4,992 nt of DNA from IMG/VR virus record IMGVR_UViG_2703718815_000007; one strand, given 5' to 3'. Below the pieces are notes generated by a model. That model had not been told where the DNA came from. It worked only from the letters and a program-made list of their open reading frames with translations, and did no database searches. Shown here in pieces: positions 1-3,769 of the stretch. Numbering within the stretch: the first letter of the stretch is position 1; the number at the start of each line of letters is the position of its first letter. The position numbers and the translations under genes are program-made. This stretch comes from a virus (Duplodnaviria; Heunggongvirae; Uroviricota; Caudoviricetes).

Positions 1-94
1 AATAGCGGATTTTTATAAATTAGTGTTTTTTGCTGTTTCATAATGTGCCACGTTGTTCATTATGTTTTTGATTTTTAAGTTCATTGCAATTTTT

Positions 95-114
95 CTTGTT
101 CCAGCTTGTTCCAC
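95..114. repeat. 10-bp tandem direct repeat CTTGTTCCAG / CTTGTTCCAC (9/10 identical)
   Basis: Read directly from sequence; contains TTGTTCCA, the reverse complement of TGGAACAA found twice downstream of int. Confidence 0.7.
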
Positions 115-138
115 GTTGTACCCCCTTGTGCAATGATC

Positions 139-162
139 GGTGTAGTTAATGGTGTAGTTAAT
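139..162. repeat. perfect 12-bp tandem direct repeat GGTGTAGTTAAT x2 abutting the int start codon
   Basis: 139-150 and 151-162 are identical. Position suggests an operator or arm-type site, but function is not shown. Confidence 0.75.
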
Positions 163-163
163 T

Positions 164-1414
164 GTGATGACCGGATTCAAAATTATGAGCAGAGCACTTA
201 ACAAACTGAGCGATACACAGCTAAGAAAAATCAACGGCACACCAGCCCCAAAAACCACATTTCTTAATGACGGTGGAAACCTGAGCGTCAGGCATTCCAC
301 CAGCGGCCTGTTAACCTGGTATTTCACCTACAGGGCAGGAGCTGGACGCCAGGTATCACCGGAACGCCTGAAGCTGGGAAATTATCCTGATCTGAGCCTG
401 AAAGCAGCCAGGGAAAAAGCGGCACAGTGTCGCGCATGGCTGGCAGAAGGAAAAAATCCACGCCATGAGCTTAATTACTCCATACAGGAAGCACTAAAGC
501 CGGTAACGGTGGGCGATGCGATCAGCTACTGGCTGGAAATGCACGTAAAGGAAAACCGTGTCGATTACGTATGCCTGAAAAGCCGCCTTAATAATCACGT
601 CATACAGCATATTGGCAATATGCCACTGGATAAATGCGAGTTACGTCACTGGCTGGCCTGTTTTGACCGGATACGCAAAAAATCCCCCGTAACATCTGGC
701 CACATGATGCAGGCGTGTAAACAGGCGCTTAAGTTCTGCCGTAAACGTCGCTACGCAGTCAGTAACGTTCTGGATGATCTCAACGTGGTGGACGTTGGCA
801 AAAAGCCGGGCATAAGCGAACGCGTGCTAAGTAACAAAGAACTGGGCGAATTATTACAGGCACTGGATAAAAAAATATTCCCGCCCTACTACAGCGCGCT
901 AATCCGCCTCCTGATTGTGTTCGGCTGCCGAACCGGAGAACTGAGATTGTCGGAGATCAGGGAGTGGGATTTTAAGGAAATGCTCTGGACAGTACCGAAG
1001 GAGCACAGCAAAACGAAGGTCGCCATATTCAGGCCAATACCGGAAAGTATTTTACCGTTCGTCACACAGCTGGTGGAGCAGAACCGACACACAGGGCTAT
1101 TACTCGGGGAACTGAAACAGGAAGCCAGCGTGTCGCAATACGGCAGATTCACACACAAAAAATTAAACCATCCTCACTGGTCACTACACGATATACGGCG
1201 CACGTTTACCACGATGCTGAACGATTTAGGCGTGGATCCACATATTGTCGAGCAACTTACCGCCCACCAGATGCCAGGGATGCAGCGAGTCTATAACCAC
1301 TCCCGTTATCTCGATGCGAAACGTAATGCGCTGGACATGTGGACAGAGCGGTTAGAGATACTGGCGGGTACTCACGAAAACGTAACCACACTGCCAATAG
1401 CCAGAGAAATATAA
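164..1414 (+). CDS. int: tyrosine site-specific integrase, P4-type (N-terminal arm-binding domain plus catalytic domain)
   Basis: 416-aa ORF. N-terminus LSDTQLRK...DGGNLSV...GNYPDLSLKAAREKA matches the P4-family arm-binding pattern (LTDxxIRK...DGGGLYL...G.YP.VSLAEAR). Catalytic motifs present: GCRTGELRLSEI (TGxRxxE box), HDIRRT (HxxR), RVYNHSRYLDAKRNALDMW (YN..Y nucleophile region). No strong SD before any start; in-frame ATGs at 164, 167 and 185. ATG 185 (MSRALNKLSDTQ) gives the more typical spacing before the LSD motif, so the true start may be 185. Confidence 0.92.
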   Translation: MMTGFKIMSRALNKLSDTQLRKINGTPAPKTTFLNDGGNLSVRHSTSGLLTWYFTYRAGAGRQVSPERLKLGNYPDLSLKAAREKAAQCRAWLAEGKNPRHELNYSIQEALKPVTVGDAISYWLEMHVKENRVDYVCLKSRLNNHVIQHIGNMPLDKCELRHWLACFDRIRKKSPVTSGHMMQACKQALKFCRKRRYAVSNVLDDLNVVDVGKKPGISERVLSNKELGELLQALDKKIFPPYYSALIRLLIVFGCRTGELRLSEIREWDFKEMLWTVPKEHSKTKVAIFRPIPESILPFVTQLVEQNRHTGLLLGELKQEASVSQYGRFTHKKLNHPHWSLHDIRRTFTTMLNDLGVDPHIVEQLTAHQMPGMQRVYNHSRYLDAKRNALDMWTERLEILAGTHENVTTLPIAREI

Positions 1415-1437: not shown

Positions 1438-1544
1438 GGACACAACGTGGAACAACGAGACACAACGACGAACAACGGCAAACAATCTGGAACAAATCTG
1501 ATTATCTATGATTATTTCTGATTAACTCCCTATAAGTCTGATTT
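1438..1544. repeat. helically phased short-repeat array (10/20-bp periodicity) just downstream of int
   Basis: Two 20-bp units, 1438-1457 GGACACAACGTGGAACAACG and 1458-1477 AGACACAACGACGAACAACG (17/20). TGGAACAA at 1448-1455 and 1488-1495. TCTGATT at 1497, 1517, 1537 (exact 20-bp spacing) plus TATGATTA at 1507. Candidate protein-binding array; function is inference. Confidence 0.6.
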
Positions 1545-1699: not shown

Positions 1700-1790
1700 T
1701 TGCCATTCCATAAACACCCTGACACAATCCGACACAACCCAACCCAATAACCCACCCAATGACTCTTTAAGAAACAACAAAGGGGGAATT
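1700..1790 (+). promoter_or_regulatory. alpA upstream region: CA-rich tract with GACACAA direct repeats, possible weak promoter, strong SD
   Basis: GACACAATCC/GACACAACCC at 1721-1740 (10-bp spacing), CCCAAT x2 at 1743-1748 and 1755-1760. Possible TTGCCA (1700-1705)-17-CACAAT (1723-1728), which is weak. SD AAGGGGG at 1780-1786, 4 nt before GTG 1791. Confidence 0.3.
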
Positions 1791-1979
1791 GTGTTAAGCA
1801 CAGATCGCTTTATACGTGAAAAAGAATGTCAGCAACTTACAGGCCTGAGCCGTTCATGTCGGTACCGCCTGGAAAAAACCGGACAATTCCCATCACGGCG
1901 TAAGCTCGGCGGTCGTTCCGTTGGCTGGTCTTTATCCGAAGTTCTGGCATGGAAGGAAAGCTGCGAGGCAGTTCACTAA
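1791..1979 (+). CDS. alpA: AlpA/Vis-family small HTH regulator (prophage transcriptional regulator / excisionase-like)
   Basis: 62-aa ORF with GTG start and strong SD. Sequence ...CQQLTGLSRSCRYRLEKTGQFPSRRKLGGRSVGWSLSEVLAWKES fits the AlpA-family pattern (HTH followed by ...G.RSVGW...EV..W). Placement immediately after a P4-type int is typical. Family call is by recollection, not search. Confidence 0.8.
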   Translation: MLSTDRFIREKECQQLTGLSRSCRYRLEKTGQFPSRRKLGGRSVGWSLSEVLAWKESCEAVH

Positions 1980-2031: not shown

Positions 2032-3312
2032 ATGAATACTGGATATTCTCCCGAACAAGGGCGGGGCTTCGTTCGTCCTGAAAAACAGAATCTGCAAAAT
2101 TTTGCCGAAATTATTCCGGTTATTTCCGGCCTTACTGGCGGGAGTGAAACCAATATTGTTAACGCCAGAGCGTTGCAGATGTTTGATGATAAAAAGGGAG
2201 TAAATTTAACTTACACCCCTGACGGCAATCAGAATATGAGCATTATCTCTGAGTCAGGTTTCTACAAACTAATAAAAACAAAAAGCGCCCCGTTGCCGGA
2301 GCGCCTTTGTGAACAATTAACCTACTGCGCAAAAAATGAATCTGAGCAGTGGGATTATATCAACCGTGTGGTGAAGCGCCACTATTGCCGGATAACAGGC
2401 AAAACAAAGGCGACCGCAAAAGGGTCGCCAGTGGGAACAAGGGAAAACAAAAGCATCACCAACAATGCCACATTTGCGGCTGGTGGGCAATGTGATCAGT
2501 CAGATTTGGTTCGTTCCAAGGTTTGCAACGAGAGTTTTTTCCTGCGCTCTTTAAGGAATTTCTCAAGAGCAAACGAACAAGGTGCGAATCTTTCTGATTC
2601 ATGCTCTATCTTTCTGCGCCGTCTTTTCCGTGTCGGTGATAATGTTTTGGTCAATTCTTTATCGGTCATTGTGTTGTCCTGCATAGCAATGCGCCGTAAT
2701 ACCTTACACCACGGCGCTGGTGATGGTTATTCCTGCTCTTTGGCCTTGCGACGCTGGCGGTATTCAACTTCTCGCTTTAATGCTGCTGTTACAAACTGCC
2801 CTGTACTTTCACCAGGCATTTTTACCGCCTCAACATTGTTCATAACTTCATGCGGAACCCTTGCCGCAACTGTTTGTGATTTTGCGTTTACTGCTTTTGT
2901 TGCCATGTTGTGTACCCCTTACAAAAAACAAATGCAGTATGCAGGAAAAAAAATAAGTGTTCAACACTTGACGTGTTTAACACCAGGGCTTAAATTGGTG
3001 TTCAACACCTTACTGATGCAAGGTGCAGAAACGACGAAACCCGGCAGTGCGCTAACACTAACCGGGCTTCTAACCACCAACGATAGAAAGCGTATCGAGG
3101 TAGCTATGAGAAATTATACCAGACACCCGCAAGGGCGGGACTCGTACAACCTGAATAAATACATCTGGCGTTTTATCGCCCTGAGCACGGCACAACCGCG
3201 CGTGATTACCATTGAGGCCACCAGCGAACAGGAAGCGCGTCAGCAATCTCCTGATGGCTGCGTGATGGTATTCGCTGCCCGTATTCGTCAGGGGGTACGC
3301 CATGTGCAATAA
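2032..3312 (+). CDS. uncertain 426-codon open frame, probably not a single gene; the first ~130 codons look protein-like, the middle looks like antisense read-through, the last 68 codons are the separate Icd/Kil-like ORF
   Basis: Seen: no stop in this frame from 2032 to 3312. Codons ~135-290 are Cys/Ser/Leu/Arg/Phe-rich, and this frame is wobble-aligned antisense to two minus-strand ORFs with their own RBS, promoter and terminators. The segment MSIISESGFYKLIKTKSAP resembles the Bro-N/antirepressor ISE.GLY.LI..S motif, but that is a weak by-eye resemblance. Two minus-oriented terminator hairpins lie inside it. Confidence 0.25.
   Translation: MNTGYSPEQGRGFVRPEKQNLQNFAEIIPVISGLTGGSETNIVNARALQMFDDKKGVNLTYTPDGNQNMSIISESGFYKLIKTKSAPLPERLCEQLTYCAKNESEQWDYINRVVKRHYCRITGKTKATAKGSPVGTRENKSITNNATFAAGGQCDQSDLVRSKVCNESFFLRSLRNFSRANEQGANLSDSCSIFLRRLFRVGDNVLVNSLSVIVLSCIAMRRNTLHHGAGDGYSCSLALRRWRYSTSRFNAAVTNCPVLSPGIFTASTLFITSCGTLAATVCDFAFTAFVAMLCTPYKKQMQYAGKKISVQHLTCLTPGLKLVFNTLLMQGAETTKPGSALTLTGLLTTNDRKRIEVAMRNYTRHPQGRDSYNLNKYIWRFIALSTAQPRVITIEATSEQEARQQSPDGCVMVFAARIRQGVRHVQ
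2271..2304 (-). terminator. candidate intrinsic terminator for leftward transcription (distal of two)
   Basis: GC-rich imperfect stem 2285-2292 with 2297-2304 (7 of 8 pairs), loop TTGC. On the minus strand it is followed by TTTTTGTTTTTATT (complement of 2271-2284). On the plus strand it is followed only by CTTTGTG. Confidence 0.4.
2401..2429 (-). terminator. candidate intrinsic terminator for the leftward RHH cassette (proximal)
   Basis: Perfect 7-bp stem GGCGACC (2409-2415) with GGTCGCC (2423-2429), 7-nt loop. On the minus strand it is followed by TTTGTTTT (complement of 2401-2408). It lies 66 nt beyond the stop of the 62-aa minus ORF. Confidence 0.55.
2496..2684 (-). CDS. small highly basic protein of unknown function, second gene of the leftward cassette
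   Basis: 62-aa ORF MQDNTMTDKELTKTLSPTRKRRRRKIEHESERFAPCSFALEKFLKERRKKLSLQTLERTKSD. The internal ATG at 2669 has AGGA 7 nt upstream, so the product is probably 57 aa. Protein-like K/E/R-rich composition, same strand as and just downstream of the RHH gene, followed by a terminator. No family recognised. Confidence 0.4.
   Translation of the reverse strand: MQDNTMTDKELTKTLSPTRKRRRRKIEHESERFAPCSFALEKFLKERRKKLSLQTLERTKSD
2727..2906 (-). CDS. Arc/MetJ-like ribbon-helix-helix DNA-binding protein, candidate repressor of the switch region
   Basis: 59-aa ORF, hand-translated (below the track's length cutoff): MATKAVNAKSQTVAARVPHEVMNNVEAVKMPGESTGQFVTAALKREVEYRQRRKAKEQE. Fits RHH layout: beta-strand (VAARVPHEV), helix A, G-x-S/T turn (PGESTG), helix B (QFVTAALKREVE), basic tail. 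SD AAGGGG 8 nt upstream of the ATG. Fold assignment is by eye. Confidence 0.6.
   Translation of the reverse strand: MATKAVNAKSQTVAARVPHEVMNNVEAVKMPGESTGQFVTAALKREVEYRQRRKAKEQE
2936..2964 (-). promoter_or_regulatory. candidate sigma70 promoter for the leftward RHH cassette
   Basis: On the minus strand: TTGAAC (complement of 2959-2964, inside operator site 1), 17-bp spacer, CATACT (complement of 2936-2941). This gives a leader of about 23 nt carrying the AAGGGG SD. Confidence 0.35.
2955..3009. promoter_or_regulatory. operator array: three palindromes sharing the core GTGTT-N-AACAC
   Basis: Site 1 at 2955-2969 AAGTGTT-C-AACACTT (7-bp arms); site 2 at 2973-2983 GTGTT-T-AACAC; site 3 at 2997-3009 GGTGTT-C-AACACC (6-bp arms). 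The sites overlap both candidate promoters. Confidence 0.65.
2968..2996 (+). promoter_or_regulatory. candidate sigma70 promoter for the rightward icd-like/replication operon
   Basis: TTGACG (2968-2973), 17-bp spacer, TAAATT (2991-2996). Operator site 2 sits in the spacer and site 3 at the predicted start. The 5' UTR would be about 100 nt to ATG 3106. Confidence 0.4.
3106..3312 (+). CDS. small protein, first gene of the rightward operon; possibly Icd/Kil-like (positional analogue of P4 kil)
   Basis: 68 aa: MRNYTRHPQGRDSYNLNKYIWRFIALSTAQPRVITIEATSEQEARQQSPDGCVMVFAARIRQGVRHVQ. SD GAGG 5 nt upstream. The in-frame ATG at 3016 has no SD and lies about 13 nt from the predicted start, so it is disfavoured. 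The Icd-like label is from memory of annotations in P4-like prophages and is low-certainty. Confidence 0.5.
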   Translation: MRNYTRHPQGRDSYNLNKYIWRFIALSTAQPRVITIEATSEQEARQQSPDGCVMVFAARIRQGVRHVQ

Positions 3313-3769
3313 CACCCGTCCGGACGCAGCCGCCGAAGCCATCAAAACGCTGATGCACGCGCTGATTGATATTTCTGTTATCGCAGACAAGGCGCATAAG
3401 CACGCCACCAGCGAAACAGAATATGCCGGGGCTTTCGTTCCTCACTCACTGGCTGTTATGCAATTTAGTGCTGATATGGCACTGAATGAGGCCAGGGCTA
3501 TCCTGATTGCTGATTGTGAAAATGGGGGGGGGGTTATGCGTGATGATCGTTTTAATGCCCTGAAACAGGAATTTTATGGCGCACCGGATGATACAGGCGA
3601 TGCGTTGCTGGTTGTTAATGACCTGATAAAGGCCGCATGTTTTTTAATTGGAACCGCTGAACATTCAGGAACCGGCAACGATATTCTTATTATTGCGTCG
3701 GATTATGCTGAATATGTGGCAGAGGCGCGTTACAGAAGAAAATTCCCGGAGAATGTAAGCCATGTGTGA
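3302..3769 (+). CDS. hypothetical protein (155 aa), translationally coupled to the upstream ORF; contains an in-frame G10 tract
   Basis: ATG 3302 overlaps the upstream stop (3310-3312). Strong SD AGGGGG at 3290-3295, 6 nt upstream. Protein-like composition. No family recognised. Confidence 0.65.
   Translation: MCNNTRPDAAAEAIKTLMHALIDISVIADKAHKHATSETEYAGAFVPHSLAVMQFSADMALNEARAILIADCENGGGVMRDDRFNALKQEFYGAPDDTGDALLVVNDLIKAACFLIGTAEHSGTGNDILIIASDYAEYVAEARYRRKFPENVSHV
3524..3533 (+). repeat. homopolymeric G10 tract inside the 155-aa ORF (encodes GGG)
   Basis: Ten consecutive G read directly. G9 or G11 would give a stop within about 10 codons. Confidence 0.9.

Follow-up and report, generated by a model that had tools for sequence, protein, structure and literature searches.

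Between the integrase gene (int) and alpA of a viral stretch of 4,992 nucleotides (hereafter the window), short motifs recur every 10 or 20 bp, and the question that this locus raises is what would bind such an array and why it lies there. A sequence-only reading had placed the repeats at 1438-1544 and proposed three interpretations: arm-type or excisionase sites, iterons of a replication origin, or a regulatory region bent by a nucleoid protein. The whole 5-kb window belongs to the EcCICFT073 family of Gram-negative phage-inducible chromosomal islands (PICIs): it is the left end of one such island, which sits in comM/yifB. The left junction of the window, AATAGCGGAT..., matches the comM/yifB junction of two relatives (L003 and L004), which places attL at the very start of the window, with the core and presumed crossover region at 1-10; the matching attR, AATGGCGGAT, adjoins the 3' part of yifB in a third relative (L015). 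A search of 5426 complete E. coli genomes found close relatives in 1850 of them, with insertions at a number of sites (abgR/smrA, comM/yifB, roxA, tqsA, and allE), and the region had no match among phage records. The int gene (185-1414, plus strand) encodes a P4-type tyrosine integrase with Arm-DNA-bind_3 and Phage_integrase domains, and alpA (1791-1979, plus strand) encodes a 62-amino-acid member of the Pfam family Phage_AlpA, a winged helix of the excisionase type. Further along lie a Bro-N-like open reading frame (ORF), an Icd-like ORF, a DUF4222 gene, and several small ORFs, together with the start of a RepA-type helicase gene (AAA_25). The experimentally studied prototype, EcCICFT073, belongs to the same family and has the same architecture; it has the same Int and AlpA proteins as L009, and 60 of the 62 AlpA residues (97%) agree with those of the window.

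Read in a 10-bp register, positions 1438-1497 (plus strand) resolve into six units, GGACACAACG TGGAACAACG AGACACAACG ACGAACAACG GCAAACAATC TGGAACAAAT, each carrying an ACAAY box in exact phase (family consensus tGrAACAAyg). The tetramer ACAA occurs six times at exact 10-bp spacing from 1442 (span, 1442-1495). In 1,000 dinucleotide-preserving shuffles of the window, the longest 10-bp-spaced chain of any 4-mer was two (893 shuffles) or three (107 shuffles), so the periodicity is not due to chance. Tandem Repeats Finder reported arrays of period 10 and period 20 at 1435-1495, and a separate repeat search also found repeat families there. The recurrence every 10 or 20 bp that had been described between int and alpA is therefore real, and its details held up as well: the two 20-bp units (1438-1457 and 1458-1477) are identical at 17 of 20 positions when counted by hand, and TCTGATT lies at 1497-1503, 1517-1523, and 1537-1543, with ATGATT also at 1508.

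The sequence-only reading had named a lack of periodic conservation in homologous elements among the results that would count against it. We compared 72 loci, drawn from E. coli genomes and from viral contigs of IMG/VR, and among them were 54 distinct int-alpA spacers; an integrase search of genome contigs gave one locus only, and a scan of viral contigs returned mostly close relatives. All 54 spacers contained five or six units in strict phase, and the periodicity was kept even where BLAST no longer aligned the flanks. Self-identity of the first 90 nucleotides after int peaked at shifts of 10 and 20 (0.47 and 0.44, against a background of ∼0.28). Across the 54 spacers the ACAA core carried 1.7 to 2.0 bits of information and the remaining positions 0.2 to 1.0 bits, and the number of units varied in whole 10-bp steps only, one relative having gained exactly one 10-bp unit. 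Conserved cores, variable positions in between, and changes by whole units together form the conservation pattern of binding sites. With at least three adjacent sites one helical turn apart, the array also has the direct-repeat arrangement of excisionase/regulator operator arrays.

Judged by conservation, the stretch 1438-1544 spans two different things: the conserved ACAAY part (1438-1497) and a lineage-specific TGATT part (1498-1544). Just 3 of the 54 distinct spacers contain the latter, which looks as if a 10-bp unit had been triplicated locally (CTGATTATCT ATGATTATTT CTGATTAACT; 1498-1527, plus strand). The sole TGATT copy with a conserved counterpart is the last one (TATAAGTCTGATTTT), and that counterpart is, in the relatives, a site matching the IHF consensus. 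Against this consensus (WATCAANNNNTTR), the best match in the window is a degenerate one with two mismatches (AATCAGACTTATA; 1531-1543, minus strand), whereas 51 of the 54 distinct spacers have a site with no or one mismatch, at a fixed place 22 to 31 bp past the last box. The DNA past the array is AT-rich (27 to 29% GC at 1500-1650), and the array itself, at 40% GC, is not especially so. A crude wedge model predicted a curvature of 7 to 17 degrees per 30 bp over the array versus 29 to 31 degrees at 1558-1600. Intrinsic curvature of the repeats was rejected on these grounds, as the same model puts the bend in 1550-1640, outside the repeats. The suggestion of a region bent by a nucleoid protein thus survives in part: it stands for an accessory element, given the IHF consensus in 51 of 54 relatives (degenerate in the window) and the predicted curvature of 1550-1640, and does not extend to the array, for which no curvature is predicted.

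Between the array and alpA, an inverted-repeat search identified a conserved hairpin terminator at 1601-1630 (AAAGGCGTAAA-N8-TTTACGCCTTT), whose stem shows compensatory changes among the relatives (GGCGTAAA/TTTACGCC versus GGCATAAA/TTTATGCC). Six T residues follow this stem on the minus strand and only three on the plus strand, and the hairpin may terminate leftward transcription at least as well as transcription of int. Two further observations concern the sequence just left of the boxes. A leftward promoter-like sequence there (TTCTGA-17-TATATT) was considered as a box-activated promoter and dismissed, because its distance to the boxes varies and some relatives have a 20-bp insertion at that point. 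Relatives of a second clade (L006, L007, L010-L013, and L017) carry a perfect 16-bp palindrome, CAGTATGCGCATACTG, 20 to 45 nucleotides after the int stop codon and before the first box; it is absent from the window.

If the boxes are binding sites, the integrase is one candidate for their binder. Just upstream of int lies a different repeat: a 12-mer, GGTGTAGTTAAT, in two tandem copies (139-162, plus strand), which recurs co-oriented in the attR arm of relatives. Across 35 loci this doubled 12-mer co-varied with the first ∼45 residues of Int, falling into TTAAT (23 loci), CACT/CATT (10 loci), and CAAT/TTAAT (2 loci) classes, and a fourth Int N-terminal class (L090) has two copies of TGTGTGGTCAGT. 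The change in the 12-mer was repeated at attR, ∼10 to 14 kb away from int. It is therefore the doubled 12-mer that is likely to be the integrase arm-type site. The ACAAY box, in contrast, was unchanged across the first three classes and nearly so in the L090 class (TTGTTTG/CTGTTCG). Since the box stays constant while the Int N-terminal class changes, the boxes are very probably not arm-type sites, and their binder is likely to be something conserved across the islands.

The proposal of arm-type sites is not supported for the array, as the 12-mer and not the box tracks the Int N-terminal domain at both ends. Nor is the array placed as arm-type sites are: it lies ∼1.4 kb from the att core and beyond int, not within a few hundred base pairs. 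One might still regard it as additional arm-type sites in a distant arm of attP, given that the same box occurs in attL and attR and that one arm repeat of phage P4 is annotated inside its int gene. We consider this very unlikely, because the arm-binding domain of the integrase co-varies at both ends with the 12-mer rather than with a box that hardly changes among the Int classes, and because a pattern search found no 12-mer near this array past int.

To locate the box elsewhere, we scanned with a position-weight matrix (PWM) built from the six array units only. Strictly phased clusters of at least three boxes occurred inside islands only: in both att arms (attL and attR), in the array itself, at the alpA promoter, and ahead of the capsid operon; the scan found none in ∼100 kb of flanking host and prophage DNA. 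The attL arm of the window contains three core-proximal boxes in 10-bp phase at 31-60 (minus strand; reverse complement TGAAACAGCA, TGGCACATTA, ATGAACAACG), which include a PWM hit at 51-60 and are conserved in relatives, and four more in 10-bp phase at 94-133 (minus strand; reverse complement TGGAACAAGA, TGGAACAAGC, GGGTACAACG, TTGCACAAGG). The latter four are inverted with respect to the int-distal array at 1438-1497, and positions 106-119 form a perfect 14-nucleotide inverted match with 1442-1455. Between the two clusters sits an IHF-consensus-like site with one mismatch (AATCAAAAACATA; 60-72, minus strand), found at the same position in 9 of 10 relatives scanned. Boxes also occupy the attR arm (19303-19332 in L001, 19700-19729 in L002, two strong and one weaker in EcCICFT073, and others in L015 and L016), and in both att arms the box clusters abut the doubled 12-mer. 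The motif thus lies beside integrase arm-type and IHF sites in attL of the window and beside the arm-type sites in attR of the relatives.

Outside the att arms, a promoter-like site for alpA (TTGCCA-17-CACAAT with TG upstream; 1700-1728, plus strand), of which all 54 distinct spacers hold a similar element, is overlapped by two PWM-detected boxes (TGACACAATC CGACACAACC; 1720-1739, plus strand) that cover the −10 and start region, and EcCICFT073 has three phased boxes there. The larger relatives that encode a capsid have another phased cluster, of three to four boxes (TTTGTTCGTG GTTGTTCCAG GTTGTTCGGT; 18382-18411 in L003 and 2440-2469 in L016), which comes after a terminator, ∼200 bp upstream of the capsid operon. 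This location suggests that the box-binding protein also controls packaging genes.

Could the array act without any protein, as an A/C-rich RNA element in the int 3' untranslated region or as intrinsically bent DNA? Its position between the int stop codon and the terminator means that it is probably transcribed. We nevertheless regard both possibilities as extremely unlikely. The att-arm boxes have the opposite orientation, which would make same-sense transcription of them improbable; no Rfam family matched over the array; conservation follows a 10-nucleotide period and the unit is reused irrespective of strand; and the crude wedge model assigns the array the lower curvature given above.

A better candidate is encoded by the island itself. 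AlpA is nearly invariant across the elements of the family and is 42% identical to the Vis protein of P4. An AlphaFold model of AlpA (pLDDT 90) most closely matched the GIsul2 excisionase (8c3t; TM 0.79), followed by MerR-type winged helices, the RdfS excisionase, TorI, BldC, and Pukovnik Xis, so that the predicted fold is that of an excisionase-type winged helix. Proteins of this type occupy direct repeats in a head-to-tail arrangement with one site per turn, and their binding is cooperative and bends the DNA (PMC7498355, PMC11963761). Published work on EcCICFT073 AlpA reports that it switches on the island and triggers excision, functions that fit boxes at a promoter and in both att arms; with its Phage_AlpA domain and these structural matches, the protein has the makings of a small winged-helix regulator of the excisionase type. 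The other small DNA-binding candidate in the island, a ribbon-helix-helix (RHH; YlcI/YnfO) protein encoded on the minus strand at 2727-2906, has no box cluster at its own promoter according to the PWM.

Of the three interpretations first proposed, excisionase sites are the best supported: the repeats are direct and one turn apart, the box stands beside the arm-type sites in attL and attR and again at the alpA promoter, and the island encodes an AlpA with the excisionase winged-helix fold. We infer, from co-occurrence and by analogy, that the array probably consists of six head-to-tail operators, one per turn, to which a small DNA-bending protein encoded by the island, most likely AlpA, would bind cooperatively; we hold this assignment with somewhat more than even confidence.

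Several observations weigh against AlpA. Two other alleles, at 55 to 66% identity, go with boxes that are only slightly different (TTGTTCG and TTGTTTG), AlpA otherwise hardly varies, and the assignment draws on co-occurrence and analogy. A Pint reporter in EcCICFT073 did not respond to AlpA (PMC6092414), despite four boxes just upstream of int in that island. The promoter-proximal boxes cover the −10 element, where bound proteins more typically repress than activate, although activation is what has been reported, and the array lies ∼200 bp and a terminator away from the alpA promoter, so that a direct role in activation is not obvious. The int-distal position is also not universal, as islands with a second AlpA allele do not have the array there. 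In these islands (L018, 2567-2984, and L019, 2497-2917; AlpA at 55 to 58% identity), int is followed by no ACAAY array but by a terminator and then a different phased repeat (AATATC three times at 10 bp), and CGAACA boxes lie downstream of the alpA −10 element. We found no mapped AlpA binding site in the searchable literature. The P. aeruginosa antiterminator AlpA was rejected as a model, being a different protein with a different site that has the name alone in common: it is Q-like, acts at a single GGGACG element between −35 and −10, and is larger than the 62-residue AlpA of the window, with at least eight helices and DNA-contact residues at 128-142 (PMC9371919), and the predicted alpA promoter (1700-1728) lacks GGGACG between its −35 and −10 elements.

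The main rival to AlpA is a host factor that recognizes phased repeats, either a response regulator of the OmpR/PhoB type or a nucleoid protein such as H-NS or Fis, in which case the array would tie the island to host physiology or to silencing. Consistent with such a factor, the box does not vary among islands whose integrases and replication modules differ, the spacer past the array is AT-rich and predicted to be curved, and most relatives have the IHF-consensus site next to it. The unit TGAAACAACG may also resemble the half-sites of OmpR/PhoB-type regulators. In addition, H-NS silences the alpA promoter of the prophage CP4So (PMC8034616). We nonetheless think a host factor unlikely, because the phased clusters are confined to islands and absent from ∼100 kb of flanks, because fixed sites beside the arm sites in both att arms are the signature of a recombination directionality factor, and because the array, at 40% GC, has no predicted curvature.

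Short tandem repeats with AT-rich DNA behind them also invite comparison with a replication origin, and the TGTTC core of the box is similar to the type I iteron of P4, TGTTCACC. The origin of these islands, however, has been mapped downstream of pri/rep, where two sets of iterons flank an AT-rich region (PMC6092414), and we found origin-like structures downstream of the replication gene in L001 (14838-15030), L003 (16591-16807), and L101 (about 11005-11240). The iterons there change with the type of replication protein: AAAGTGAGG accompanies the RepA-type helicase in L001, CTGTTCACC accompanies the P4-like primase in L003 and is identical to the P4 type I iteron, and EcCICFT073 has TGTCTACC. 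The array, on the other hand, stays unchanged across the three iteron types, being 99.5% identical between the window, with its RepA-type helicase, and L003, with its primase; it is, moreover, in the wrong place and forms a single co-oriented set. These results contradict the earlier suggestion of origin iterons and guard against a tempting misreading. That the array is an iteron set, or a cis-replication region like crr of P4, seems to us to have an almost negligible probability.

Turning back to AlpA operators, we asked which known systems resemble this arrangement. By analogy, the array most likely belongs to a known class, the operator arrays of excisionase/regulator proteins of the Apl, Cox, Vis, and Xis type, with Apl of phage 186 as the closest precedent. 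Apl has seven operators between pR and pL and five at attP, each a 6-bp direct repeat, at 10- to 11-bp spacing (PMC7498355). As in the island, Apl and Cox (of P2) act at short direct repeats one turn apart in arrays of five to seven, with one array in an att arm, adjoining sites for integrase and IHF, and another outside att at a regulatory region, and like AlpA each is a small protein to which excisionase and transcription-regulator functions are ascribed (PMC7498355). The systems differ in that the arrays for Apl and Cox are flanked by a lytic and a lysogenic promoter that face each other, and serve to repress them, whereas the extra array of the island lies 3' of int, before a terminator and ∼200 bp from the promoter of alpA, whose product is reported to be an activator and belongs to a separate sequence family (Phage_AlpA).

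P4 offers a second comparison. Its tandem 12-bp arm repeats (TTGGGGGCAT twice on each side of the core), just upstream of int, have the geometry of the doubled GGTGTAGTTAAT. In the passages of PMC7498355 and PMC2603039 that cite the work on Vis, this protein has its binding region between int and the core, bends the DNA, is required for excision, and regulates promoters elsewhere. Beside the tandem arm repeats of P4 (L014, 3966-4006, int strand) we noted four motifs in 10-bp phase (cGTCC, cTTCC, tGTCC, and aATCC), a layout like that of the four boxes beside the 12-mers in the window; by analogy, these may be Vis boxes. P4 differs in the sequence of its box and in having no phased array downstream of int. 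The lambda Xis sites X1, X1.5, and X2 are likewise three head-to-tail sites in ∼10-bp phase by an arm-type site, bound by a winged-helix excisionase that forms a micro-filament, but they lie in one arm only, and there is no second array. Lambda X1 (ATGTTGTGTTT) has GTTGTGT in common with the reverse complement of the box. Cross-recognition by lambda Xis was nonetheless set aside and stays a low-probability lead, since the lambda site scored only 5.4 bits against the box matrix and lay outside any phased cluster. Finally, helper-embedded PICIs have a doubled attP motif, tgTGTATTGCa twice (Tommasini et al. 2023, PMC10111431), which, like the doubled GGTGTAGTTAAT, is 11 to 12 bp long and occurs once per attP arm, co-oriented. 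Its counterpart here is the arm-type 12-mer and not the array; those authors did not find the doubled motif in other PICIs and did not describe the phased box (PMC10111431), and our own literature search found no description of such a phased array for these islands.

How might a protein with these sites work? At the attL and attR boxes, beside the arm-type and IHF sites, AlpA would act as a recombination directionality factor; at the boxes of the alpA promoter it would regulate its own gene; and in some relatives the same box upstream of the capsid operon would provide a further site. The six-box array just 3' of int, oriented opposite to the attL boxes, would be an operator cluster outside att on which the protein polymerizes and bends DNA, in most relatives probably assisted by the adjacent IHF site. 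For this int-distal array we infer several candidate roles: it could serve as a high-affinity site for nucleation or titration of AlpA, control transcription of int and alpA, remodel the AT-rich and predicted-curved DNA at 1550-1640, or pair with the inverted attL array and loop out int.

The last of these roles can be put more boldly, as can a different one. The six-box array and the inverted four-box attL array, 1.3 kb apart and flanking int, might pair through AlpA filaments into a loop that encloses int and couples excision to int and alpA expression; or else the boxes might sense an excisionase-like protein of a helper phage, making the array the trigger site of island induction. The idea of helper sensing arises because GTTGTGT is common to the box and lambda X1 and because alpA has a phage-encoded inducer. 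We rate this pair of proposals as improbable.

AlpA is the master switch of Gram-negative PICIs, and our analysis supplies a candidate operator for it (tGrAACAAyg in 10-bp phase), a candidate regulon that takes in both att arms (attL and attR), the int-distal array, and the alpA promoter as well as, in some islands, the capsid operon, and, separately, a candidate arm-type site for the integrase. All three candidates hold in EcCICFT073, where genetics exist, so that the link which AlpA makes between excision and activation, and the way in which helper phages trigger AlpA, can be tested directly.

A few minor features of the window deserve mention. The 426-amino-acid ORF at 2032-3312 is probably not a single gene: the 5' part bears a weak likeness to Bro-N, relatives have an Icd-like gene annotated where the last 68 codons (3106-3312) lie, and the RHH gene is located inside the ORF on the opposite strand. 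A poly-G tract of 10 G residues at 3524-3533, within a 155-amino-acid ORF (3302-3769), varied from 7 to 11 G among 41 relatives, and the annotation of relatives shows two separate small ORFs there; the tract could be a slippage-prone or phase-variable junction or a sequencing-error hot spot. Last, a match to the SymR antitoxin RNA at 3033-3105 (minus strand), weak and under the Rfam gathering score (32.8 bits, E = 0.002), lies directly upstream of the Icd-like ORF that starts at 3106 and is antisense-adjacent to it.
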